A stretch of DNA of 43,056 bases from Minisyncoccia bacterium (lineage in GTDB: Bacteria; Patescibacteriota; Minisyncoccia; SW-4-49-11). The position numbers and the translations under genes are program-made. Shown piece by piece: positions 1-43,056 of this stretch; within the stretch, counting starts at the first letter, position 1; each line of letters begins with the position of its first letter. The stretch is from assembly GCA_044356725.1 (NCBI GenBank), contig JBIKVS010000009.1, positions 1 through 43,056 on the forward strand, written 5' to 3'. A model generated the notes under the pieces. The model saw nothing but the letters and a program-made list of their open reading frames with translations. It made no database searches and was not told where the DNA came from.

Positions 1-168
1 TTTAACAAATCTTTAATAGAATACATTTACTATTATAATACTAAACGTCCTCATACTTCTCTTAACTATTTATCTCCTTTCTCTTTCCTCTCTAATTTTT
101 CCACGATGTATTCGTCCTATACAATATCTTGCAGAAAAAATAAATTTATGATACAATATATTTTATAA
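1..168 (+). mobile_element. 3' end of IS481/IS3-like (rve integrase core) transposase, truncated by window edge; probable element end near 123
   Basis: Frame 1 reads FNKSLIEYIYYYNTKRPHTSLNYLSPFSFLSNFSTMYSSYT..., stop TAA 166-168. YNxxRPHxSLxYxSP is the C-terminal motif of rve/IS481/IS3 transposases. Sequence ...TATACA at 118-123 fits a TGT...ACA IS481-type end. Not in the ORF track. Confidence 0.75.
129..157 (+). promoter_or_regulatory. sigma70-type promoter for tRNA-Ile
   Basis: TTGCAG, 17 nt spacer, TACAAT with TG extension, 11 nt before the tRNA. Confidence 0.6.
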
Positions 169-13090: not shown

Positions 13091-13252
13091 GTCCTCCTTT
13101 GGAGGAGGTGGCCTATAGGCCGGAGGAGGACACTTGGTAAAATTGCAAAGTAATCCACACCCTCAGGCTAAGCCTGGCCTCAAAAGGGAGACAATAAGCT
13201 AAAATATCCTGTCCCCCTTTTGGAGGGGGAAGTCTGAAAGACTGGGGTGGAT
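13091..13252. repeat. GC-rich palindromic repeat cluster 1 (three double-hairpin modules)
   Basis: GTCCTCCTTTGGAGGAGGTGGCCTATAGGCCGGAGGAGGAC (13091-13131), degenerate inverted copy (13153-13194), GTCCCCCTTTTGGAGGGGGAAGTCTGAAAGACTGGGGTGGAT (13211-13252). Confidence 0.85.
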
Positions 13253-14788: not shown

Positions 14789-14837
14789 ATAGTTTATTAT
14801 AACATAGATTGAGTTATTTATAGATTTTTTGTATAAA

Positions 14838-15228
14838 AATTATGAATTGTTAATTTCTTAGAGTCGGTGCCCTCGCCGACATTGCTTGTCTGTAGGGGCG
14901 ACCTTTCAGTCGCCTGAAGTCCTCCTCCGTCACCTACGGTGCCACCTCCCCCAAGGGAGGATAATTTTGTCGAGTTTTCTGTCTCCCTTCCATCCCTACG
15001 GGAGGCAAGTGGAGGGAGTCCCCGTAAAAAGGCTTTAGCCTTTGGGAAAGGGGTCGGGAAAACGGGAGTTTTCCCGTGGAGGAAGGTTGGGAAACCGTGA
15101 GGTTTAACAGGAGCAAATCTTATTTGCGACGGGGGAGGGTGGATTGCTCTATGTCCTCCCTTGGGGGAGGTGCCCGAAGGGCGGAGGAGGACAGGAGTAA
15201 ATCCCATTTGCGACGGCGGAGAGTAGAC
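14838..15228. repeat. composite repeat cluster 2 (heptamer tract, GTAG-headed REP, modules with nested inserts)
   Basis: AATTATGAATTGTTAATTT 14838-14856; GTAGGGGCGACCTTTCAGTCGCCT 14892-14915; modules at 14919-14962, 14981-15143, 15153-15192; 14891-15143 is an inverted near-copy of 34751-35005. Confidence 0.9.
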
Positions 15229-15248
15229 AGTTATATTCATTCTCAATC

Positions 15249-15539
15249 CTAAGATTTTTTCTTACTAAACCATTTTTGGGTGTTAGGATTGCGATGTGGA
15301 CATCCAGGCCAACAGCAGGGAATTTTCTCTCCCAATTCTAATTCTTCCAACATTCTCGATATATGTTTAAGTCTTGTTTCTTCTCTTTTGACAATAGTCA
15401 CCCAACAAATCCATTCATTTCTTTGAATTGGAGTTAAATTATTCCATTTTTCTAATATTTTGTGATTATTTAGTAAAACCTCCTGCATATCTGAGGGAAT
15501 AGGATGCAATATGCCTGATAGAATTGTTTGATCTTGCAT
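15249..15539 (-). CDS. YdeI/OmpD-associated family protein
   Basis: IPSDMQEVL...WNNLTPIQRNEWICWVTIVKREETRLKHI...LELG pattern; C-terminal CCWPGCPHR. Confidence 0.85.
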   Translation of the reverse strand: MQDQTILSGILHPIPSDMQEVLLNNHKILEKWNNLTPIQRNEWICWVTIVKREETRLKHISRMLEELELGEKIPCCWPGCPHRNPNTQKWFSKKKS

Positions 15540-15602
15540 AGTAATTGATAATATGTATATAAATTATTATACAAAATATTAAGGTTTTTGTGAAATTGTA
15601 TT

Positions 15603-15947
15603 AATTATGAATTGTGAATTTCGTAGCGGAGCCGTCCCTACGGGAGGTAAACGTTTATCCCTCCATATCGTAGGGATACCTTTCAGTATCTTATGATCCC
15701 CCCCGCCTTTCAGGCTTCCCCCTCCGAAGGGGGGCAAAATAAGAAATGTCCTAATTTGGAGGTAGGTGACGGAGGGGAACAGAATTCAGAATTTATTTTT
15801 CCACCCCGTCCAGCGGAGCTGTCCACCCCCTCCTAAACTTAGAAGTATAGGAGGGACGAAAGCCCTCAATTTATCTCACGTAGGGAGAGAGGGGAATTTT
15901 TAGGGCAGTCCTCCTCCGCCCTACGGGCACCTCCCCCAAGGGAGGAC
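15603..15947. repeat. composite repeat cluster 3
   Basis: AATTATGAATTGTGAATTT 15603-15621; REP variant GTAGGGATACCTTTCAGTATCTT 15670-15692; modules at 15696-15735, about 15748-15780, 15800-15896, 15908-15947. Confidence 0.85.
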
Positions 15948-16008
15948 AATTTTTTGATATAAGAAAAAATCCCCGCTGCGAGGTGCATTGGGGGTGTGGG
16001 GGTTTAGG

Positions 16009-16569
16009 TCAGAGAATACGAGCTCCCCATTTTCTGTCTTGTTCTCTGAGGAGAGATGCATAGTCTGGTTCTGTTAACTTATATTTTCGTAACGCTCCCT
16101 CTTCGTTAGTATATATTATGTAGTCAGGGGCTTTGTTATTGATAGCTAAATGTTATTCTAGAACTAAATTGTTTTGTGGTTTTATTACTGCTGCAATGTA
16201 TAATGTCCAGCCTGAATGAGTTGTTGTTTTTTCCATCTGATATATTAATTCCCCCTCAAATCCATAAGGGTTGTCAACCTTTAATGTATGGCCTCGTTCT
16301 GCTTGTATTTTACCAATTAAAAGTATAGAGTTATCTACATGTCTTTGGGGTTCGACTATTCTTAAAATTTTAGAAGCACGATACTGCTCTAAACTAAAGC
16401 AATTTATATTGAATATGCCATTCTCTGATTTGGTAAGGATAACTTTTGTATCTATTGGAATGACAAACTCTTCATTTTCAACAAGCAATACAAGTCTATT
16501 GAATCCATTATCTTTTCTTATTTCAACTCCAGATTCCTCAAAAGTTTCTTGGGTTGTTCGGAGCTTCAT
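16009..16569 (-). pseudogene. hypothetical protein, probably interrupted by an in-frame TAA at 16153-16155
   Basis: The 138 aa ORF continues in frame after TAA for 47 codons (HLAINNKAPDY...RKWGARIL) to TGA 16009-16011, followed by a weak hairpin and T run. Confidence 0.55.
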
Positions 16570-16730
16570 TGATTTTTAAAATGAGCTTGAACTCTCTTTG
16601 TCAGGGAGTTCTGGCAAGGTTGAGTGTAGCGTATTGAAAAAGATGAGAAACATCATAGACATATTTGAAAATTTTTGGCAATTGTGCTATAATATTAGAT
16701 AGGGTATTGTTATATATTGCTATCTAAAAT

Positions 16731-18461
16731 ATGAAAGTTATTCAACAATTTGTAGAATATTTTGAGTCTCAAGGTCATATTCAGGTAGACTCTTCCTCTT
16801 TATTACCTAAAGGGGATACTTCGGTTTTGTTTACTACTGCGGGGATGCAGCAGTTTAAGTCTTATTATCTTGGAACTCCGTCTCCGTATGGGAATCGGGT
16901 TGTGAGTGTACAGAAGTGTCTTAGAGTTGATGATATTGATGAGGTTGGGGATGAGACTCATAATACTTTTTTTGAGATGCTTGGGAATTTTTCTTTTAAT
17001 TATCCTGAGGGTGAGGGGAGTTATTTTAAGGCTGAAGCAATTAGATTTGGGTATGAATTGATTGCTGAGCAGTTAGGTATGCAGATTGATTATGTGACTA
17101 TCTTTGCTGGTGATGAGAAAAGTCCCAAAGATACTGAGACTTTAGCTATTTGGCAGGATTTAGCTCGGGAAAAGGGTATTGAATTAAAGATTAGAGAACT
17201 TGGGCGAGAGGATAATTTTTGGGGTCCTACTGGGGCAGAGGGACCTTGTGGTCCTACTACAGAGATTTTTGTAAATGATGTTGAAGTCTGGAATATTGTT
17301 TTTAATCAATATTATTCCAAAATTGGCGGTGAATTAGAGATTTTACCTCAACAGGGGGTTGATACTGGTGGTGGTTTGGAGAGAATTATGACTCAATTAG
17401 AGGGGGTTAACTCAGTTTATGACACCAGTGTCTTTTCTCCAATTATGTCTGATTTGAGAGATAGCTTCCAAGGGCAAAAAGAGTCAGTCTATAGAGTTTT
17501 ACTTGACCATATTCGGGCCAGTACTTTTCTTCTGGCTGAGGGAGTGGTACCTTCTAATAAAGAACAAGGATATGTTTTGAGGAGATTACTTCGTAAAGTG
17601 ATGAGTTTGACTAATTCTTATGATAGATCTTTGGAATTGATTTTTGATACTGTGGGGTCAATTATTGATGTCTATAAAGATAGATATCCTGATCTGGAGA
17701 CTTCTCAAGATAGTGTAAAGACTTTAATTCAGGATGAATATGCTTTGTTTCAAGATGCTTTGTCTCGTGGTATGAAAATGGCAAATAAATTATTGAAGAA
17801 AAAACGAGTCCCGCATATGTCAGGAGAAGAGGCTTTTCTTCTAGCTTCTACTTATGGGCTTTCTCCAGAAGTTTTGAAATTGCAAGGTTTGTCTTTTGAT
17901 GAGCAAGACTTTGAAGATTATAAGTCTGAACATCAGGCTATCTCTAGAGCGGGAGCTACCAAAAAATTTGGTGGGCATGGGCTTATTTTGGATAATGGTG
18001 AATTAAAAGCTGCTAATGAAGAAGAATTAGCTATTGTGACTAGACTTCATAGTGCGACTCATTTATTAAATCAGGCTTTGCGGGAAGTTTTGGGTGAAAG
18101 TGTAGAACAAAGAGGTTCTGATATTACGGCGGAGCGAACTAGATTTGACTTTAGTTTTGACAGAAAGCTTACCTCAGATGAAATTAAAGCAGTAGAAGAT
18201 AAAGTTAATTCTTATATTAATCAAGCGGCTGAGGTTGTGATTACTAATATGCCACTAGAGGAGGCAAAACAATCTGGGGCTTTGTACTTGGCTAATCGTA
18301 ATTATCCAGAATTTGTGGATGTTTATGCTTTTGGGGATATCTCTAAAGAATTGTGTGGAGGTCCGCATATTAAGAATACAAAAGAGATAGGACAGTTCAA
18401 AATCAAAAAAGAGGAAGCGGTTGCTAGCGGAGTTCGTCGTATTCGTGGTATAATAATTTAA
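16731..18461 (+). CDS. alaS: alanine--tRNA ligase, short form lacking the C-Ala domain
   Basis: LFTTAGMQQFK, QKCLR, HNTFFEMLGNFSF, GPCGP, VDTGGGLER, DHIR, HSATHLL, ELCGGPH, GVRRI; ends just after the editing domain. Confidence 0.97.
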   Translation: MKVIQQFVEYFESQGHIQVDSSSLLPKGDTSVLFTTAGMQQFKSYYLGTPSPYGNRVVSVQKCLRVDDIDEVGDETHNTFFEMLGNFSFNYPEGEGSYFKAEAIRFGYELIAEQLGMQIDYVTIFAGDEKSPKDTETLAIWQDLAREKGIELKIRELGREDNFWGPTGAEGPCGPTTEIFVNDVEVWNIVFNQYYSKIGGELEILPQQGVDTGGGLERIMTQLEGVNSVYDTSVFSPIMSDLRDSFQGQKESVYRVLLDHIRASTFLLAEGVVPSNKEQGYVLRRLLRKVMSLTNSYDRSLELIFDTVGSIIDVYKDRYPDLETSQDSVKTLIQDEYALFQDALSRGMKMANKLLKKKRVPHMSGEEAFLLASTYGLSPEVLKLQGLSFDEQDFEDYKSEHQAISRAGATKKFGGHGLILDNGELKAANEEELAIVTRLHSATHLLNQALREVLGESVEQRGSDITAERTRFDFSFDRKLTSDEIKAVEDKVNSYINQAAEVVITNMPLEEAKQSGALYLANRNYPEFVDVYAFGDISKELCGGPHIKNTKEIGQFKIKKEEAVASGVRRIRGIII

Positions 18462-18462
18462 T

Positions 18463-19059
18463 ATGAAAATAAAGCATAAAATTTTACTTAGAAAATCTCT
18501 GCATTTAAGTCTAATTATACCTTTTGGAATTTTTTGGTATTTATCTGTGCAAACTTTTGCTTATGCTCAAGAATATGCTAGATGGTTTTTGATTGCTTTT
18601 GTATCTTTATTCTTGATTTATGAGTATATTAGGCTAGACACTAAGATATGGGTGCCTTTTGCTAAATTGGTGAAGCCCAAAGAGTCTGAGACTAGTGTAG
18701 ATGGGTTTAATTTGGTGTTGGCAGCTATTGTTGCGACTAGTCTTTTTTCACCACAAATTGCAGTAGTTGCTATTTTGATTGCTATAATTGGTGACACTTT
18801 CTCTACAATTGGAGGAATTTATGGTACAATGAAAGTATTCCCAAAAACTGAAAATAAAACTACTTGGGAAGGTATATTCCTAACATTATTAGCGAACTTT
18901 TTCATTGCTGGTAGTATTCTTGGGTTTAGTCTATTTCCATTAATTCTAGCCATTGCTGGAGTGGTGATAGAAACCTATGCTACTAAGTTAGATGATAATT
19001 TGGCTATACCTTTAGGGGTTGGGCTAATTGGAGAAATAATCTTATTCATAACAACATAA
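18463..19059 (+). CDS. CTP-dependent lipid kinase-like membrane protein (dolichol/phytol kinase, DGK1 family)
   Basis: RKSLHL, IGDTFSTIGG, KTTWEG, DDNLAIP motifs; polytopic. Confidence 0.8.
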   Translation: MKIKHKILLRKSLHLSLIIPFGIFWYLSVQTFAYAQEYARWFLIAFVSLFLIYEYIRLDTKIWVPFAKLVKPKESETSVDGFNLVLAAIVATSLFSPQIAVVAILIAIIGDTFSTIGGIYGTMKVFPKTENKTTWEGIFLTLLANFFIAGSILGFSLFPLILAIAGVVIETYATKLDDNLAIPLGVGLIGEIILFITT

Positions 19060-19069
19060 ACTTATTAAT

Positions 19070-20278
19070 ATGTTTGGAAAAAAAGAAATACTACAACCTT
19101 TAATAATAGATATCTCAGAAAATAGAGTATCTGTACTAGACTATACAATAGATACAAAAACTGGTAATACTATTATTCAAGCTTTGGGCGAAACTAAATT
19201 GCCTTTTGGGGTTGTTGGGACAGATTTTATAGAACAGGAAGATATTTTGATACAGTCTATTGAGGAAGCTATTACTCAAGTTAGACCAGTTAATTCTAAT
19301 GTTAAGGAGCAATCGAGTGTTGTATTTGGAGTTTCTGGTCCAATGGTTGAAGTTGTGCCAAGAGTAATTGAATTACAAAGAGAAAATCCTAATCATAAAA
19401 TTCGATCTAAAGAATGGGTTAATGCGATTGATGATGTGTATTCTAAATTCGACGCTGAAGTTTATAATAGTGCTCAAGGACATAATTCACCACTGTCGCT
19501 TGTTCAAATTTCACTTAATAATATTATTTTAGATGGACAAGAATTTATTTCTCCAATTGATGAAAAGGCAGAGCAAATTACCCTAGATACTATTAATACC
19601 TATATTCCTACTAATTATAAACAATCTTTGATCAATATAGCTAAAGCCAATGATTTGCAAATAGAAGGAGTATATCATTATGACTTTGGAGTGGGACAGT
19701 TAATATTAGATTATAATACGAATAAAGATATATCTATAATTCTCGTAGATATTAGATTTGGGCACACTAGTATTAGTTTGATACAGAATCAAAAAATTAC
19801 TTATGCTTATTCATTCAGTGTTGGTAGCCATAGTTTTACTCAAGCCATTGCTAATACTTTCCAGATTACTATTGATGAGGCTGAAACTGTGCGTCAAGAA
19901 TATAGTATGTTGCAATTACCACGAGATATGTCTCGCAAAATTACAGATGCTCTAGAGGCTGAAATCTCTCTTTGGCTACAAGGAGTTATATATTCTCTCA
20001 AGTCTCTGAATATAAATGATAGTCCTACACATATCTTTTTATATGGAGAGGGTGCATCTTTATTAGGTGTGAAAGAATCTTTGGAATATAGTACTTGGTA
20101 TAAATCTCTTAGTTTAACCCAAAAACCTTCACTATCTATTTTAACTCCTAAGCAATTCTCTCATATTGTGGATATGACTAGTCATATTGAGGGTTCTAGA
20201 TTTGTAGATATGCTAGGATTAGTTCATCTCTCAAGTATTCCTTTAGACATTCATTTACCTTATCGTATAAGCGAATAA
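19070..20278 (+). CDS. FtsA/PilM-like actin-fold protein
   Basis: IIDIS, LVDIRFGHT, VGSHSFTQAI, EAETVR, LYGEGASLLG actin-like motifs; IILDGQ subdomain suggests FtsA-like. Confidence 0.75.
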   Translation: MFGKKEILQPLIIDISENRVSVLDYTIDTKTGNTIIQALGETKLPFGVVGTDFIEQEDILIQSIEEAITQVRPVNSNVKEQSSVVFGVSGPMVEVVPRVIELQRENPNHKIRSKEWVNAIDDVYSKFDAEVYNSAQGHNSPLSLVQISLNNIILDGQEFISPIDEKAEQITLDTINTYIPTNYKQSLINIAKANDLQIEGVYHYDFGVGQLILDYNTNKDISIILVDIRFGHTSISLIQNQKITYAYSFSVGSHSFTQAIANTFQITIDEAETVRQEYSMLQLPRDMSRKITDALEAEISLWLQGVIYSLKSLNINDSPTHIFLYGEGASLLGVKESLEYSTWYKSLSLTQKPSLSILTPKQFSHIVDMTSHIEGSRFVDMLGLVHLSSIPLDIHLPYRISE

Positions 20279-20280
20279 AT

Positions 20281-21852
20281 ATGAAATCTCATACATCCAA
20301 AAAATCCATCATTATAAATCCCAAAGATAGTTTAGCTGATGTCATTTATCAGATAAAGAGTTATGCCAGTCAGAACAAAAATACCTCCGTATACATACCG
20401 GATTCTATGTATATGTTGTACAATCCTGTTAATAGGGAGTTGTTTACAAATAGTATCAAGCAATTATCAGATAAATATGATATAGATCTATATAGTACAG
20501 ATAATAATCTGATATATTTACTCAAGGATGCAGATATCAAGGTTAAATATTTAGATAATATACAGGATATAGAGGTTGACTCTCATCCACAAGAGGATGC
20601 TTCTTATACTGATTTTCTGGCTTATAAACAAGCTATCCAAGATAATCCAGAACAACATTCTATACAGTCAGAACCAGTTTTCCAGGCTTCCAATAGTAAT
20701 AATAGCATTAATATACCTACAAAAAGACATACTCAGAATAATTCCAAACCAGTTTCTAAAGGATTACTATATTTTGCGATAATTCTAGGTATAGTGTTTG
20801 CTTCTTTATTATCTTTAATACTTATCCCAAAAGCTGAAATCACAATTAAAACTAAAACCGAAGAATTATCCAAGGACTTCGAGGTGACTTTTGACCCTAA
20901 TATTACTGACATTAGTTTAGAAAATAGAACTGTGCCATCTACAGTAGATATTATTTCAGCTTCAGTAGATGGAACTTATGAAGCTACTGGTTCACAAACA
21001 GGTGGAACTAGAGCAGAAGGAAATATAACTATTATCAATAAAACTTCTACATCACAACAATTAGTCTCAAATACTAGATTTCGCTCAGAGCAAGGAAAAC
21101 AATTTAGACTTGTCGAATCTGTAACTGTTCAAGGCAATGCTTCTGTTGAGGCCAAGATTAGAGCTGAAGCCGTCGGAACCGATTATAATATACCTGCTGG
21201 TAGACTTACAATCCCTGGTCTGGAAGATACTCCAACTAAATTTACAAATATATATGGAGAATTAAAGACAGATTTGAAGAACGGAACATCTGAAGATAGT
21301 ATTGTAGTTACTAATGAAGATATAGATAAGGCTAGGGTGGATTTACAAAAGAAATTAACCGAAGTAGTGAATACTCAAGTCACAGAAAAAGAAGGCTTGA
21401 AAGCTCTGGCTATTCAAAGTAAATTGAATGATATTAAATATGAAGGACTACCAAGTGTTGGTGAAGGTGTGAGAAGTTTTAATGTGAAAGCTAGCAGTAG
21501 TTTATCAGGAGTTTTTTATAAAGAAGAGGATTTAGATAAAGTTATTAAATCTATATTAGAGACTCAAGTCTTAGAATCTCAAGAATTGGGAGATATTAAT
21601 ATTCAGTTTGATAGACAGCAAGAATTTCCTGACAAACAAGCTGTTAAAATTCGAGTATATGTAAATTACAAGATTCTAAATAAATTTGACCAAGATAAAA
21701 TAATTAATAATATTAGATTAAAGACAGTTAATCAATCTAAATCTTATCTGGAAAATTTGGATAATGTTGATACGGTAGATTTAAACCTTACTCCTGGTTT
21801 CAGTCCAATTATACCAATTCTCAAATCTAGAATTAGTATAAATATTGAATAA
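20281..21852 (+). CDS. single-TM protein with baseplate J/gp47-like extracytoplasmic region
   Basis: TM then PKAEITI; ATG..RAEGNITIIN, QQLVSNTRF, AEAVGTDYNI, TIPGL, VVTNEDIDKA motifs; follows the FtsA-like gene. Confidence 0.65.
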   Translation: MKSHTSKKSIIINPKDSLADVIYQIKSYASQNKNTSVYIPDSMYMLYNPVNRELFTNSIKQLSDKYDIDLYSTDNNLIYLLKDADIKVKYLDNIQDIEVDSHPQEDASYTDFLAYKQAIQDNPEQHSIQSEPVFQASNSNNSINIPTKRHTQNNSKPVSKGLLYFAIILGIVFASLLSLILIPKAEITIKTKTEELSKDFEVTFDPNITDISLENRTVPSTVDIISASVDGTYEATGSQTGGTRAEGNITIINKTSTSQQLVSNTRFRSEQGKQFRLVESVTVQGNASVEAKIRAEAVGTDYNIPAGRLTIPGLEDTPTKFTNIYGELKTDLKNGTSEDSIVVTNEDIDKARVDLQKKLTEVVNTQVTEKEGLKALAIQSKLNDIKYEGLPSVGEGVRSFNVKASSSLSGVFYKEEDLDKVIKSILETQVLESQELGDINIQFDRQQEFPDKQAVKIRVYVNYKILNKFDQDKIINNIRLKTVNQSKSYLENLDNVDTVDLNLTPGFSPIIPILKSRISINIE

Positions 21853-22324
21853 TATGAATATTATTTGGCCATGGCTATTACCACTTATCCCTCTGACATG
21901 GGGTTTGATAGATGTAGTAAGACTTAAAAATTTTTTAGAAGATAGAGGTTGGCTAAAGTTAGCTTTAGATAAAAGTGAATTAGAAAGATTGACTTTAATT
22001 AGAGCTATATTAATAGCATTAATAATATTTTTTGTAATCCTAGCCTCAGGTAAGACTCAACTTATTGTCGGAATGATAGGTATGATAATGGGAGCTTTAA
22101 TTATGTATTACTCAGAAGCCATTCATAGAATGTTTGGTATAGGAGGCGGTCCGGATTCAAAGTTCAGAGGAGATACACAAGTAAAGTTAGTGGGGCTGAT
22201 TATGTGTATTTTGTCAGGGCTTTGGATGTCAGGGATTACACAGGGATTATTGCTTTGGTTTTTGCAAACTTCTAATTTATTACCCGACCCTGATTTAATA
22301 TCATATTTCAGCAGCTCTATTTAA
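21845..22324 (+). CDS. polytopic membrane hypothetical protein
   Basis: About four TM helices; 3' end overlaps the convergent sua5 by 24 nt; start may be ATG 21853. Confidence 0.65.
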   Translation: MNNMNIIWPWLLPLIPLTWGLIDVVRLKNFLEDRGWLKLALDKSELERLTLIRAILIALIIFFVILASGKTQLIVGMIGMIMGALIMYYSEAIHRMFGIGGGPDSKFRGDTQVKLVGLIMCILSGLWMSGITQGLLLWFLQTSNLLPDPDLISYFSSSI

Positions 22325-23278
22325 TCTATCCATAATGGCTATCCCCAAACCTTCGGGTTTAAAACTCTCAGCTAATATAATATCTACTTTCTGGGAGTCA
22401 AAATAGTGTAGTCCAGCATATAGATTAGACGATATAGTCTTATAATTATCTCTAGAACCTAAATCAAAACCAATTACTTGAGAAGGTAATATCTGATAAA
22501 TTTCACTAGAGACTAAAGCCCCTACTTTATAGCCTTGAGTTAAATAAAATTCTATTTTAGAAATAATATCTCCGTTCAAGGGTATTAATTCCAACTTAGC
22601 TTCTGGAGCATAATGTCTATATTTCATCCCAGGGGATTGTATCTTAGTTGTTTTTTGAGATAATTCTACTTTACTTCCTAATACTTGCTCAATTTGTTCT
22701 TGAGTAATATATCCTTGTCTCAAAATTATTGGATGTTTTGGAATGGTATTAATTACAGTAGACTCCAGACCTATTTCACTTGGCTCACCATCTATTATAA
22801 AAACTTTATTACTAAAATAATCTCTAATCTGTTGAGTTTGAGTAGAACTAGGTTTACCTGAAGGATTGACTGAAGGAGCCGCTAAAGGAACACCACACTC
22901 CGAAATAAATTGCCTCGCAATAGGATTGCTAGGAAAACGAATGACCACCGTATCAAGACTAGCTGTGACAATATCTGGTATAAGTTCAGATTTTGGGAAT
23001 ACAAGACTGAGAGGTCCAGGCCAAAATTGATCAATTAGCTTTTGATTGTCTATTGAAATATTATTAACCAATTGAGGCAATATTTCAAGTGAACTAATGT
23101 GCACAATCAGAGGATTATCAGCAGGTCTATTTTTGAGCTTGAAAATTTTAGCAATAGCTTGTTCATCAAAAACATTAGCCCCTAAGCCATATACAGTCTC
23201 AGTCGGGAAAGCTACAATACCACTATTTTGAATGATTGTAGCACCTTGCTTAATTTGTGCATCTAAATCTAACTTCAT
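22301..23278 (-). CDS. sua5: L-threonylcarbamoyladenylate synthase (Sua5 type)
   Basis: VAFPTETVYGLGA, KNRPADNPLIVH, FWPGPL, AAPSVNPSG, GLESTV, SPGMKYRHYAP, AIMDRLNRAA. Confidence 0.96.
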   Translation of the reverse strand: MKLDLDAQIKQGATIIQNSGIVAFPTETVYGLGANVFDEQAIAKIFKLKNRPADNPLIVHISSLEILPQLVNNISIDNQKLIDQFWPGPLSLVFPKSELIPDIVTASLDTVVIRFPSNPIARQFISECGVPLAAPSVNPSGKPSSTQTQQIRDYFSNKVFIIDGEPSEIGLESTVINTIPKHPIILRQGYITQEQIEQVLGSKVELSQKTTKIQSPGMKYRHYAPEAKLELIPLNGDIISKIEFYLTQGYKVGALVSSEIYQILPSQVIGFDLGSRDNYKTISSNLYAGLHYFDSQKVDIILAESFKPEGLGIAIMDRLNRAAEI

Positions 23279-23335
23279 ATATTAATTATAGAATTAAAAT
23301 AGTATAATATATTTATATATTAATATCAATAAATT

Positions 23336-24433
23336 ATGAATTATAACACTATTAGCCTACATTGCTTTAACACCTTACCTCAAATTGGACCAAAATCTCT
23401 AGCTAAAATTCAAGAGGCAGGAGCCCATAGACTTTGGTTAGAAGGTAATTTAAGTGAGTTTCAATCCATTCTAGGACCTAGAGCGAGATTAGATTGGTAT
23501 CAGGAATTTAGTCAATTAAATCGAGAAAAATTTTTAGAACAAGAATTAAGTTATTTAACACAAGAAAATATTCAAGTTATAACAAGACAAGATGAAAGTT
23601 ATCCAAATAAATTATTAGAAATCTCTACTCCATCTACAATTCTATATGTGAAAGGAGATATTACTGGACTTGACAATGCTTTATCTATAGTAGGAACTCG
23701 TAAATATACACCTTATGGGGCTAGAATAGCTGAAAAACTAAGTAGGGAATTATCTGAGGCCGGTATCCCAATTATTAGTGGATTGGCCTTAGGGATAGAT
23801 AGTATTGCTCATAGAGGTTGTCTAGATGGTAATAGTAAAACTATTGCTATATTAGGGGGAGGTATGTCATCGCAAGCTCTATATCCAAGAACAAATCAAT
23901 CTCTAGCTAATGCCATTGTATCTAGTGGGGGAGCCTTAGTTAGTGAATTTCCACCCAAAAGTAAGCCCAGAAGAGAAAACTTTGTATTAAGAAATCGTAT
24001 AGTTAGTGGAATTGCAAGAGGAATATTGGTAATAGAAGCTCCTATAAAAAGCGGAACTATGACTACAGTCAAATATGCTCTAGAACAAAATCGAGACGTA
24101 TTTGCAATTCCTGGTAATATAGATGTCAAAAATAGTGAAGGAACTAATCAACTAATCAAACAAGGAGCATATATAGTAACTCAAGTAGAGGATATATTGA
24201 ATGTATTTGGTTTAGAAATAATCAAAAGAGAACTAGATTTAAGCCAATTTGAACCAGAACAAATAGTCATATTACAACATTTGAAACATACTCCACTAAC
24301 TATAGAAAAGCTATCTGAACTCACTCAACAAGAGGTAATGGATTTAATGGCTACATTATCCATCTTAGAATTATCTGGCATCGTTACTTTAGGAGCTCAA
24401 GGAGAATATTCCCTTAATATAAGAATAGATTAG
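23336..24433 (+). CDS. dprA: DNA-processing protein DprA
   Basis: YPNKL, SIVGTR, IISGLALGIDSIAH, FVLRNRIVSG, VIEAPIKSG, VFAIPG, NQLIKQGA, C-terminal winged helix. Confidence 0.96.
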   Translation: MNYNTISLHCFNTLPQIGPKSLAKIQEAGAHRLWLEGNLSEFQSILGPRARLDWYQEFSQLNREKFLEQELSYLTQENIQVITRQDESYPNKLLEISTPSTILYVKGDITGLDNALSIVGTRKYTPYGARIAEKLSRELSEAGIPIISGLALGIDSIAHRGCLDGNSKTIAILGGGMSSQALYPRTNQSLANAIVSSGGALVSEFPPKSKPRRENFVLRNRIVSGIARGILVIEAPIKSGTMTTVKYALEQNRDVFAIPGNIDVKNSEGTNQLIKQGAYIVTQVEDILNVFGLEIIKRELDLSQFEPEQIVILQHLKHTPLTIEKLSELTQQEVMDLMATLSILELSGIVTLGAQGEYSLNIRID

Positions 24434-24454
24434 TGTAGTGTGATTTTTTGAAGT

Positions 24455-24757
24455 GTAGGGGCGACCTTTCAGTCGCCTGTAATTGTATTAAAATTCCCCT
24501 CTCTGCCTACGGTAGATAAATTGAGGGGTGGACGCTTCGCTGGACGGGGTGGATGTATTTTGCAATTTGAGCTAATGTCTCCCTTTTTAACTGCCGTAGG
24601 TAGTTGGAGGGAGTACCCGAAGGGGGAGGGAGGATAAACTTTGGAATACTAAAATAAACACTTGTTTGTATCAATATTACACTCTATCCACCACCGGCAC
24701 TTCGTGCCACCTCCTCCAAAGGAGGACAAATACAGGGGACTGAAAGGTCTCCCCTAA
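24455..24757. repeat. composite repeat cluster 4 bracketed by an inverted pair of GTAG-type REPs
   Basis: GTAGGGGCGACCTTTCAGTCGCCT 24455-24478 and inverted variant 24734-24757 enclose modules at 24494-24554, 24577-24634, 24686-24727. Confidence 0.9.
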
Positions 24758-27471: not shown

Positions 27472-27615
27472 ATTATTCAATAATTTTAATATTATAAGTA
27501 TATCATAATTCTTACATATAAACAATGCATTGTACTAGATGATATGATAGTAGACAAGTTGCAAAATAAAAAGTCAAGGTATTAAAGAAGTAGCAAGAGT
27601 ATTAGATAATTAATT

Positions 27616-27752
27616 GTCTTCCTTTGGAGGAGGTGGCACTAAGAAGTGCCGGTGGTGGATAGAGTGTAATATTAATACAAACAAGTGTTTATTTTAGTAT
27701 TTTAAGTAGTATATCCACCCTCCCCCTTCGGGTACTCCCTCCTAAGGGAGAC
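27616..27752. repeat. repeat cluster 5: REPIN-like doublet, inverted copy of 24577-24727
   Basis: Two inverted modules plus AT-rich spacer; spacer core AATACTAAAATAAACACTTGTTTGTAT(C/T)AATATTACACTCTA is shared with cluster 4. Confidence 0.9.
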
Positions 27753-27830
27753 AAAATAAATTTCAACCTTAAAATATTGTCTACGATGTTTCTCATCTTT
27801 TTCAGAACAATGTATAAGTATTATAAATAA

Positions 27831-34709: not shown

Positions 34710-35005
34710 AATTATGAATTATGAATTATAAGTTATGAAGTGTTAATTTTGTCCTCCCTCCCCCTTCGCAAATGTGATTTGCTCCTTGGAAACCCACGGT
34801 TTCCAACACTCGGTCTTTGACCTCGTTGCCTCCCTCCACGGGAAAACTACCGTTTTCCCGACCCCTTTCCCAAAGGTTAAAACCTTTTTTACGGGTACTC
34901 CCTCCAAAGGGAGACAAAAAGTACAACCAAACTGTCCTCCTTTGGAGGAGGTGGCACCGTAGGTGACGGAGGAGGACTTAAGGCGACTGAAAGGTCGCCC
35001 CTACA
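34710..35005. repeat. composite repeat cluster 6 (heptamer tract plus inverted near-copy of cluster 2)
   Basis: ATTATGAATTATGAATTATAAGTTATGAAGTGTTAATTT from about 34710; modules 34751-34915 (with nested insert) and 34934-34977; REP 34981-35004. Confidence 0.9.
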
Positions 35006-42906: not shown

Positions 42907-43056
42907 ATGATCTTTCATTTTATTCTCTTTCTCTTGGGGTTTGGCGATATTTGTTTCATGGAAAAGTCAAGGAACAAACGCACCACTTTAGAGTTTGGAA
43001 GGTTTAGAGGAAAGTTTAGGAGATTTAGAGATAAGATGAAGGAAGTTAATAGGAGC
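42907..43056 (+). CDS. possible ORF start, truncated by window edge
   Basis: MIFHFILFLLGFG... open to the end; TTGACA-17-TATAAG promoter at about 42854-42882; no recognisable motif. Confidence 0.3.
   Translation, partial: MIFHFILFLLGFGDICFMEKSRNKRTTLEFGRFRGKFRRFRDKMKEVNRS

Follow-up and report, generated by a model that had tools for sequence, protein, structure and literature searches.

A 19-20-nt hairpin unit recurring in the tips of GC-rich hairpin repeats of a Patescibacteria genome: a candidate for one of the smallest mobile DNA units

The stretch of DNA analysed here (the window) is a complete contig of 43,056 nt (C4; GenBank JBIKVS010000009.1) from the genome of a Minisyncoccia bacterium, an uncultured lake bacterium of the Patescibacteria whose DNA is represented in lake-water metagenomes, 16 runs of which contain half or more of the words sampled. 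This 0.9-Mb source genome, labelled G000 below, comprises 897,185 bp in 20 contigs, with 33% GC, 99% completeness and a coding density of ~89% by a crude open reading frame (ORF) call; GC-rich hairpin repeats fill its longer spacers as islands. An earlier note on the window had described a mini-hairpin inserted again and again into other repeats, and its five copies lie where they were reported: at 14991-15009, 15634-15650, 15872-15888 (reverse), 24502-24518 and 24589-24605 (reverse). The third of these, CCTACGTGAG, deviates from the motif by a single letter. Two copies interrupt the hairpin GTCTCCCTT...GGAGGGAG, at 14981-15018 and 24577-24613, and do so in opposite orientations, while the same hairpin is intact at 34898-34915 and 27735-27752 (Table 1); both intact copies are on the minus strand, and the loop at 27735 is TTA, not TTT. 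The picture of insertions into the same loop in opposite orientations therefore holds, with the correction that two subfamilies are involved, a 20-nt form inserted forward (CCATCCCTACGGGAGGCAAG) and a 19-nt form inserted in reverse (ACTACCTACGGCAGTTAAA). The length of the unit, previously given as 17-19 nt, becomes 19-20 nt.

What defines this non-coding micro-repeat is its structure. A stem of six pairs (CC/GG and, outside these, four that covary) closes in a CC-TAC-GG tip and is followed by a short tail rich in A, which reads TAAA or, more rarely, CAAG or CAGG. Its main forms are U1 (TCTRCCTACGGYAGATAAA), the D-type (ACTACCTACGGCAGTTAAA) and U2 (CCATCCCTACGGGAGGYAAR). The anatomy was read from 84 instances, comprising 37 distinct sequences, drawn from G000, from the closest species compared (G004) and from 40 contexts in relatives; the CC-TAC-GG tip of this sample was set by the search itself. 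Among the 37 distinct sequences, the outermost stem pair is C-G in 16, T-A in 13, A-T in 4 and G-U in 2, with 2 non-pairs, so that the changes are clearly compensatory. In the innermost variable pair, C-G occurs 12 times, A-T 8, G-C 1, G-U 4 and A·C 8, and the position next outside the stem is unpaired (it pairs in 3 of 37). A covariance search of window positions 13000-35100 against Rfam 15 returned tRNAs and weak matches at chance level only, with no family match up to E 1.

The motif is far more frequent than expected. In the window, CCTACGGNAG occurs 4 times against 0.03 expected (0 of 100 shuffles reach 4), and its core CCTACGG 7 times against 0.67. The genome-wide count that the earlier note had proposed gives 98 CCTACGG in 897 kb, compared with 10-21 in five first-order Markov simulations. 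Most of these (82 of 98) lie within intergenic GC-rich repeats, where manual reading distinguishes 31 tailed units, 18 central mini-hairpins of family A and 17 of family B (see below), and 16 further repeat contexts; the other 16, namely 15 unique sites and one site in 16S rRNA, match the simulated chance level. A chance origin of the motif frequency is excluded. At up to 3 mismatches from two consensus forms, G000 holds 42 copies of the unit.

Where do these copies sit? We searched G000 with the exact arms of four families of host hairpin: A (GTCCTCCYTT / GGAGGAGG), A2 (CCTCCCTT / GGGGGAGG), B (TCTCCCT / GGAGGGAG) and E (TTCCCCTC / GAGGGG). The search yielded 122 hairpins with 0-3 nt between the arm motifs (24, 36, 31 and 31 in A, A2, B and E, respectively) and 22 with 19-40 nt (5, 1, 10 and 6). 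All 22 long loops, which measure 19-22 nt apart from one of 40 nt, consist of a unit or a one-mismatch variant of it and hold no other content. Apart from at most one ambiguous T, the difference between a filled and an unfilled loop is precisely these 19-20 nt, and when filled paralogues are aligned with unfilled ones, 5 of the 10 listed indels that bear the core are exactly 19 or 20 nt long. A fifth host, G (TAGCGGAG-G-GTTTATCCCTCC), has 8 filled and 11 unfilled copies in the genome; here the unit occupies the 5' arm, and its own GGGAGG replaces the arm in pairing. A sixth, the CTGGCTCC...GGGAGCCAG hairpin, is present in 2 copies. Host B holds U2 forward and the D-type in reverse at the identical position.

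The unit is found in at least five hairpin contexts besides host B, as well as inside itself; at least three hairpin types that hold it lie outside the four families searched by their arms. The three cases of unit-in-unit nesting in G000 are all in reverse and always directly after CCTACGG, and the two tips of a nested pair build an 8-bp stem, CCTACGGG/CCCGTAGG. Altogether, insertion of the unit into GC-rich hairpin repeats of other kinds has happened many separate times, nearly always at the T-rich tip of the host; the other landing sites are the fixed point within unit copies and one hairpin arm. In DNA folds, the stems of unit and host are stacked into a single extended hairpin from which the tail bulges, and an 18-nt hairpin is lengthened by the insertion to 37-39 nt with a small bulge.

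Relative to the flanking genes, U1 lies 4 times in the same and 12 times in the opposite orientation (n=16, a raw count that carries no test statistic), U2 is split 4/5, and the hosts are split 15/21, 19/11 and 7/7. Neither units nor hosts have a strong orientation bias relative to genes, the count for U1 being the only uneven one. This fits an element acting at the level of DNA better than a strand-specific RNA signal, and the same lack of strong bias counters a reading of the unit as a terminator or other strand-specific RNA.

INDEPENDENCE of insertions was examined on a ~150-nt composite made of a B hairpin, an AT-rich spacer and an A hairpin, of which 16 copies can be aligned, including the one at 24577 and its unfilled, 91% identical paralogue at 27611-27752. 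In a tree of these 16 copies, computed from ~115 columns with the loop left out, the two D-filled copies are split apart and so are the two U2-filled copies. Monophyly of each filled class is rejected in approximately unbiased (AU) tests (p 0.013 and <0.001), and the state of the unit changes at least 4 times on the tree. The scatter of the filled copies supports independent insertion. A ~110-nt insert, which we call 'L', is likewise scattered on the composite tree (p 0.003). Independent insertion into one hairpin loop, as proposed in the earlier note, is therefore supported by the two subfamilies with their opposite orientations, by the 31 short-loop copies of the same host, by the unfilled paralogue of the 24577 composite, by the scattered filled copies and by the many hosts. 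At the same time, each host-plus-unit composite is itself present in several copies, which indicates that many copies arose by co-amplification.

Beyond G000, a search for U1 at up to 2 mismatches was positive in 7 of the 11 sister species and negative in all 5 genomes from other genera of the family, with reversed-pattern controls at 0; U2 likewise occurs in 7 of the 11, and in a single genome from a different genus. When a 15-nt degenerate form was counted in 251 genomes of the class, at least 3 copies were found only in this genus and in genus g47, which belongs to another family: 4-22 per genome in 7 of 8 sampled sister species, plus G000, and 3 in each of two g47 genomes. Elsewhere among the 251 genomes the counts are at control level. 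This patchy distribution, including the distant g47, could mean transfer between lineages. In g47 (G058 and G090, two species; L223-L227), CCTGCCTACGGCAGGTAAA lies inside a different repeat of ~90 nt, the outer stem of which is ATGGAG...CTCCAT. The sister species add C5-type hairpins and other hosts to the contexts; relatives also carry D-type units in the loops of A, B and C5, and frequently nest unit in unit. A nested D+U2 pair has host B in G000 and host A in G009, and in G013, a genome of another genus of the family, a unit sits in an unrelated ATCCTCAG...CTGAGGAT hairpin. A scan of viral contigs gave 40 single matches; not one of them lay in a hairpin host or carried family words, and we read them as chance.

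The closest species, G004, shares 86% identity over 664 kb in a whole-genome comparison. Where spacers of G000 hold islands of 200-400 nt, the matching G004 spacers hold 4-44 nt or other repeats. Between the two genomes there are clean presence/absence differences of whole modules of 55-62 nt. One of these, near position 50847 of contig C15, appears as a 62-nt gap against C25 of G004 within a 93-98% identical flanking stretch and comprises a hairpin module of ~55 nt and one repeat copy. It is bounded in G000 by the 7-bp direct repeat ACAGAAT, of which G004 has a single ACACAAT, and is a presence/absence of a whole host repeat.

Based upon these data, we propose, with a probability of roughly 0.6, that the unit is a mobile module at the DNA level, inserted at hairpin tips in a manner directed by structure and then co-amplified with its hosts. 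Such a module would be non-autonomous and akin to the small dispersed repeats of cyanobacteria. It may be copied as DNA into hairpin tips that are single-stranded through extrusion or during replication, with a trans-acting activity recognising the conserved tip and stem, and the resulting host-plus-unit composites would afterwards multiply as wholes. The size of the unit places it among the smallest mobile DNA candidates. A bolder form of the proposal, which we hold only tentatively, is that the 19-nt hairpin is genuinely mobile, smaller than any mobile element described and spreading in ultra-small Patescibacteria genomes, that it could enter tips with no dedicated transposase, through replication or repair enzymes or the activity of resident insertion sequences (IS), and that it would in this way build nested, lengthening islands.

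Several observations weigh against mobility. The composite tree rests on ~115 columns located 30-150 nt from the loop, so that recombination between copies could scatter the states, and the AU tests were applied after the tree had been inspected. Since orientation is fixed for each pair of subfamily and host and the composites are multi-copy, the truly separate events may number ~10; since hosts A, B and C5 differ only by compensatory changes, a unit common to them could be inherited. Comparison of filled with unfilled loops showed neither a target duplication nor any consensus at the target besides the T-rich tip. The comparison of G000 with G004 yielded no orthologous pair of filled and unfilled sites, and two locus-specific scans of metagenome contigs gave no match; in four lake metagenomes the contigs break off at the repeats, and the joints are due to one repeat copy matching another. 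No enzyme was found in the searches described below, and the IS481/IS3-like and IS30-like ends in the genome are unrelated to the unit.

In a rival history, the unit has no mobility of its own: there was one insertion, or a handful, in the distant past, after which the host repeats multiplied as MITE-like composites (MITE, miniature inverted-repeat transposable element) and recombination or gene conversion moved the filled loop between related host subfamilies. The close relation of the A, B and C5 arms, the constant orientation within each host-unit pair and the 55-62-nt modules present or absent as wholes between G000 and G004 all agree with such a history, as do the host-specific variants within multi-copy host-unit pairs: CAAG and CAGG tails are almost confined to host B, and TCCACC...GGTCGA is restricted to host E. 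We nevertheless consider it unlikely, because E, G, the CTGGCTCC...GGGAGCCAG hairpin, the G013 hairpin and the g47 repeat have no likeness to A or B beyond the unit, because unit-in-unit nesting demands further events, and because conversion tracts would have to stop within 1-2 nt of the unit every time; the scatter of filled copies on the composite tree also speaks for separate insertions.

Selection could in principle have produced the same hairpins in place, if the mini-hairpin were a structural signal (a protein-binding tip, or a structure acting in transcript ends, stability or replication) whose extension was favoured repeatedly. An invariant tip on a covarying stem would be expected of such a signal, the insert always extends the host stem coaxially, and the central mini-hairpins of A and B have the same tip. 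Yet identical stretches of 19-20 nt, tail included, in unrelated loops are beyond the reach of point mutation, and neither the orientation counts nor the Rfam search favours a signal of this kind, which makes it a distinctly improbable explanation; the G004 spacers with 4-44 nt in place of 200-400 nt argue against an essential role. We judge it very improbable indeed that the units are footprints of a larger transposon with inverted ends, two terminal stubs of which would have stayed behind when it was excised or lost its interior. The central hairpin of B does resemble the joined ends of the ~110-nt 'L' insert, with an 8-nt direct repeat around it, and IS481/IS3-like and IS30-like elements are present. 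However, a larger parent element with unit halves as its ends was sought in host-like flanks of G000 and G004 and none of 25-900 nt was found; the ends of the resident IS (TGTMTAGGAYGAAWACATCG...) are unlike the unit, around which there is no target duplication.

If the unit is a non-autonomous module, an activity acting in trans would be expected, and we searched for candidate enzymes. The Y1 transposase/RAYT profile (PF01797; RAYT, REP-associated tyrosine transposase, where REP stands for repetitive extragenic palindrome) has 0 matches in G000 and was positive as a control in 6 of 14 genomes. Profile searches of G000 found no RVT_1 reverse transcriptase, TnpB zinc ribbon, IS110, rve, DDE_Tnp_1 or resolvase; a search for Y2_Tnp had no match either, but its control was silent everywhere too, so that this result carries no weight. 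These negatives are weakened by two IS families that are left unassembled at contig ends. A link to GIY-YIG nucleases, suggested in the earlier note, finds no support: the sole GIY-YIG domain in G000 is that of UvrC, ~11 kb from the nearest copy of the unit.

The first of the two IS families, with the inverted terminus TGTMTAGGAYGAAWACATCG, is represented by its two inverted ends at 14 contig ends (8 places with one end, 6 with the other), and window positions 1-140 are part of such an end, one of the 8. Its longest copy, at C15 75671-75949, encodes the C-terminus of a transposase matching rve_3 and IS481/IS3 models. Window positions 42927-43056 belong to the second repeat, which is common to 4 contig ends (including C6, C8 and C11) and the start of C19; there it is preceded by a fragment matching an IS30 transposase model (E 7e-10).

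Among known systems, the closest kind is that of the small dispersed repeats (SDRs) of cyanobacteria. SDR1-8 of heterocyst-forming cyanobacteria, attributed to Elhai et al. in 2008, are reportedly 21-27 nt long, so that the 19-20 nt of the unit lie just below their range. In common with them, the unit is a non-coding sequence of ~20 nt in tens of copies, its hairpin is backed by compensatory changes, and it is nested in other repeats and in itself; SDRs are also said to be confined to a single coherent clade, to encode no protein and to have no known mechanism, as here. The unit is not a member of SDR1-8: its host belongs to the Patescibacteria and is not a heterocystous cyanobacterium, a separation that rests on phylum and on SDRs as they are reportedly described. 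It also differs in targeting the tips of other hairpin repeats and in residing in a genome of 0.9 Mb. GC-rich palindromic clusters and double-hairpin elements of fungal mitochondria measure 30-60 nt, are thought to be mobile and are sometimes nested. They resemble the unit as GC-rich hairpins dispersed through a small AT-rich genome, but are organellar, larger and unrelated in sequence.

Like MITEs, the unit is non-autonomous, multi-copy and intergenic, in a genome with two multi-copy IS families; unlike them, it is ~10 times smaller, lacks a target duplication and has ends that do not resemble the IS ends seen at the 14 contig ends. PMC3116915 cites the cyanobacterial SDRs and covers REP sequences and their doublets, REPINs. 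As described there, these are short extragenic palindromes that form hairpins, and inverted pairs occur with the unit as well. The REP/REPIN-RAYT system is set apart by the absence of a detectable Y1/RAYT gene from our 99%-complete genome, in which contig-end repeats are unassembled, and the REPIN doublets of ~100 nt by the fact that our units are mostly singlets in host hairpins, with only 3 nested inverted pairs in G000. A search of the literature for repeats of this kind in the phylum turned up nothing relevant.

If the unit truly moves, it would mark a lower bound on how small mobile DNA can be and show that elements of this kind do well in the most reduced free-standing bacterial genomes, which are considered poor in repeat DNA. 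For the search for its machinery, a question dating from the first description of the cyanobacterial SDRs, the unit offers a defined substrate: its tip is invariant, the stem covaries, the tail is rich in A, and insertions go to hairpin tips, with 122 unfilled and 22 filled sites in one genome. In practice, short-read assemblies break at hairpin islands, and spurious ORFs arise in them. An example is the ORF at 14818-15246 (142 aa), which is made up entirely of repeats and is probably spurious.

Table 1. Units, host hairpins and related elements in the window
Feature	Position	Strand	Remark
Unit U2, 20 nt, CCATCCCTACGGGAGGCAAG, in loop of B-type hairpin, forward	14990..15009	+	
Host B hairpin GTCTCCCTT / TGGAGGGAG, filled	14981..15018	+	DNA fold -8.1 kcal/mol, host stem stacked on unit stem
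Unit U2 CCGTCCCTACGGGAGGTAAA within G-type hairpin TAGCGGAG...GTTTATCCCTCC	15632..15651	+	
Degenerate unit U1 TCTCCCTACGTGAGATAAA in loop of E-type hairpin	15870..15888	-	Host 15862-15894
Unit U1 TCTGCCTACGGTAGATAAA in loop of E hairpin CCCCTC...GAGGGG	24502..24520	+	Host 24496-24528
D-type unit ACTACCTACGGCAGTTAAA, reverse, in loop of B hairpin	24586..24604	-	Host 24577-24613; one continuous extended hairpin, z -3.5
Unfilled B hairpin GTCTCCCTTTGGAGGGAG	34898..34915	-	
Unfilled B hairpin GTCTCCCTTAGGAGGGAG	27735..27752	-	
Composite of B hairpin, AT-rich spacer and A hairpin, unit present	24577..24728	+	
Same composite type, unit absent	27611..27752	-	91% identical to the 24577 copy beyond the loop
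A-family element, central mini-hairpin with CC-GTA-GG tip, between direct repeats GG(A/G)GGAGG	14919..14952	-	Further copies at 34944-34977 (+) and, with a different stem, 15915-15953

The host families themselves have a layered build. Families A, B and E follow a common plan, in which a pyrimidine arm, a T-rich loop and a purine arm are followed by a variable mini-hairpin and the purine arm again (examples at 13091-13131, 14919-14968, 24496-24555 and 34930-34977). The loops of these mini-hairpins are GTA, GAA, TTCG or TATA, with covarying stems, and the repeated purine arm flanks the mini-hairpin as an 8-nt direct repeat, which gives it the look of a further insertion. The 'L' insert, a GC-rich multi-hairpin sequence of ~110 nt with the core GGGGTCGGGAAA, is present in ~27 copies in G000, including those at 34770-34915 (-) and 15019-15145 (+). 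It sits in the central mini-hairpin of B elements, directly after TACCCGTA and flanked by the 8-nt direct repeat GGAGGGAG, and has no Rfam match.

G000 also contains MITE-like composites of ~150-235 nt. Beside most composites of B hairpin, spacer and A hairpin lies a module of ~50 nt, GAAAAAGATGAGAAACATCGTAGACAAT..., as at 27757-27800 (-) and 16634-16665 (+). Read in reverse, this module begins with TGTCTACGATG, which resembles the terminus of the first IS family, so that these composites could be MITEs derived from it.

The spacer between the genes for photolyase and alanyl-tRNA synthetase (AlaRS), at window positions 14810-16662, is 1851 nt long, comprising two small genes and ~1 kb of repeats; its counterparts measure 587 nt in G004 (L013) and ~100 nt in L009. 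Elsewhere in G000, contig C12 (L215; 7644 nt, 29% GC) has first and last 34 nt that are identical, and is thus probably a small circular element, either a plasmid or a phage.

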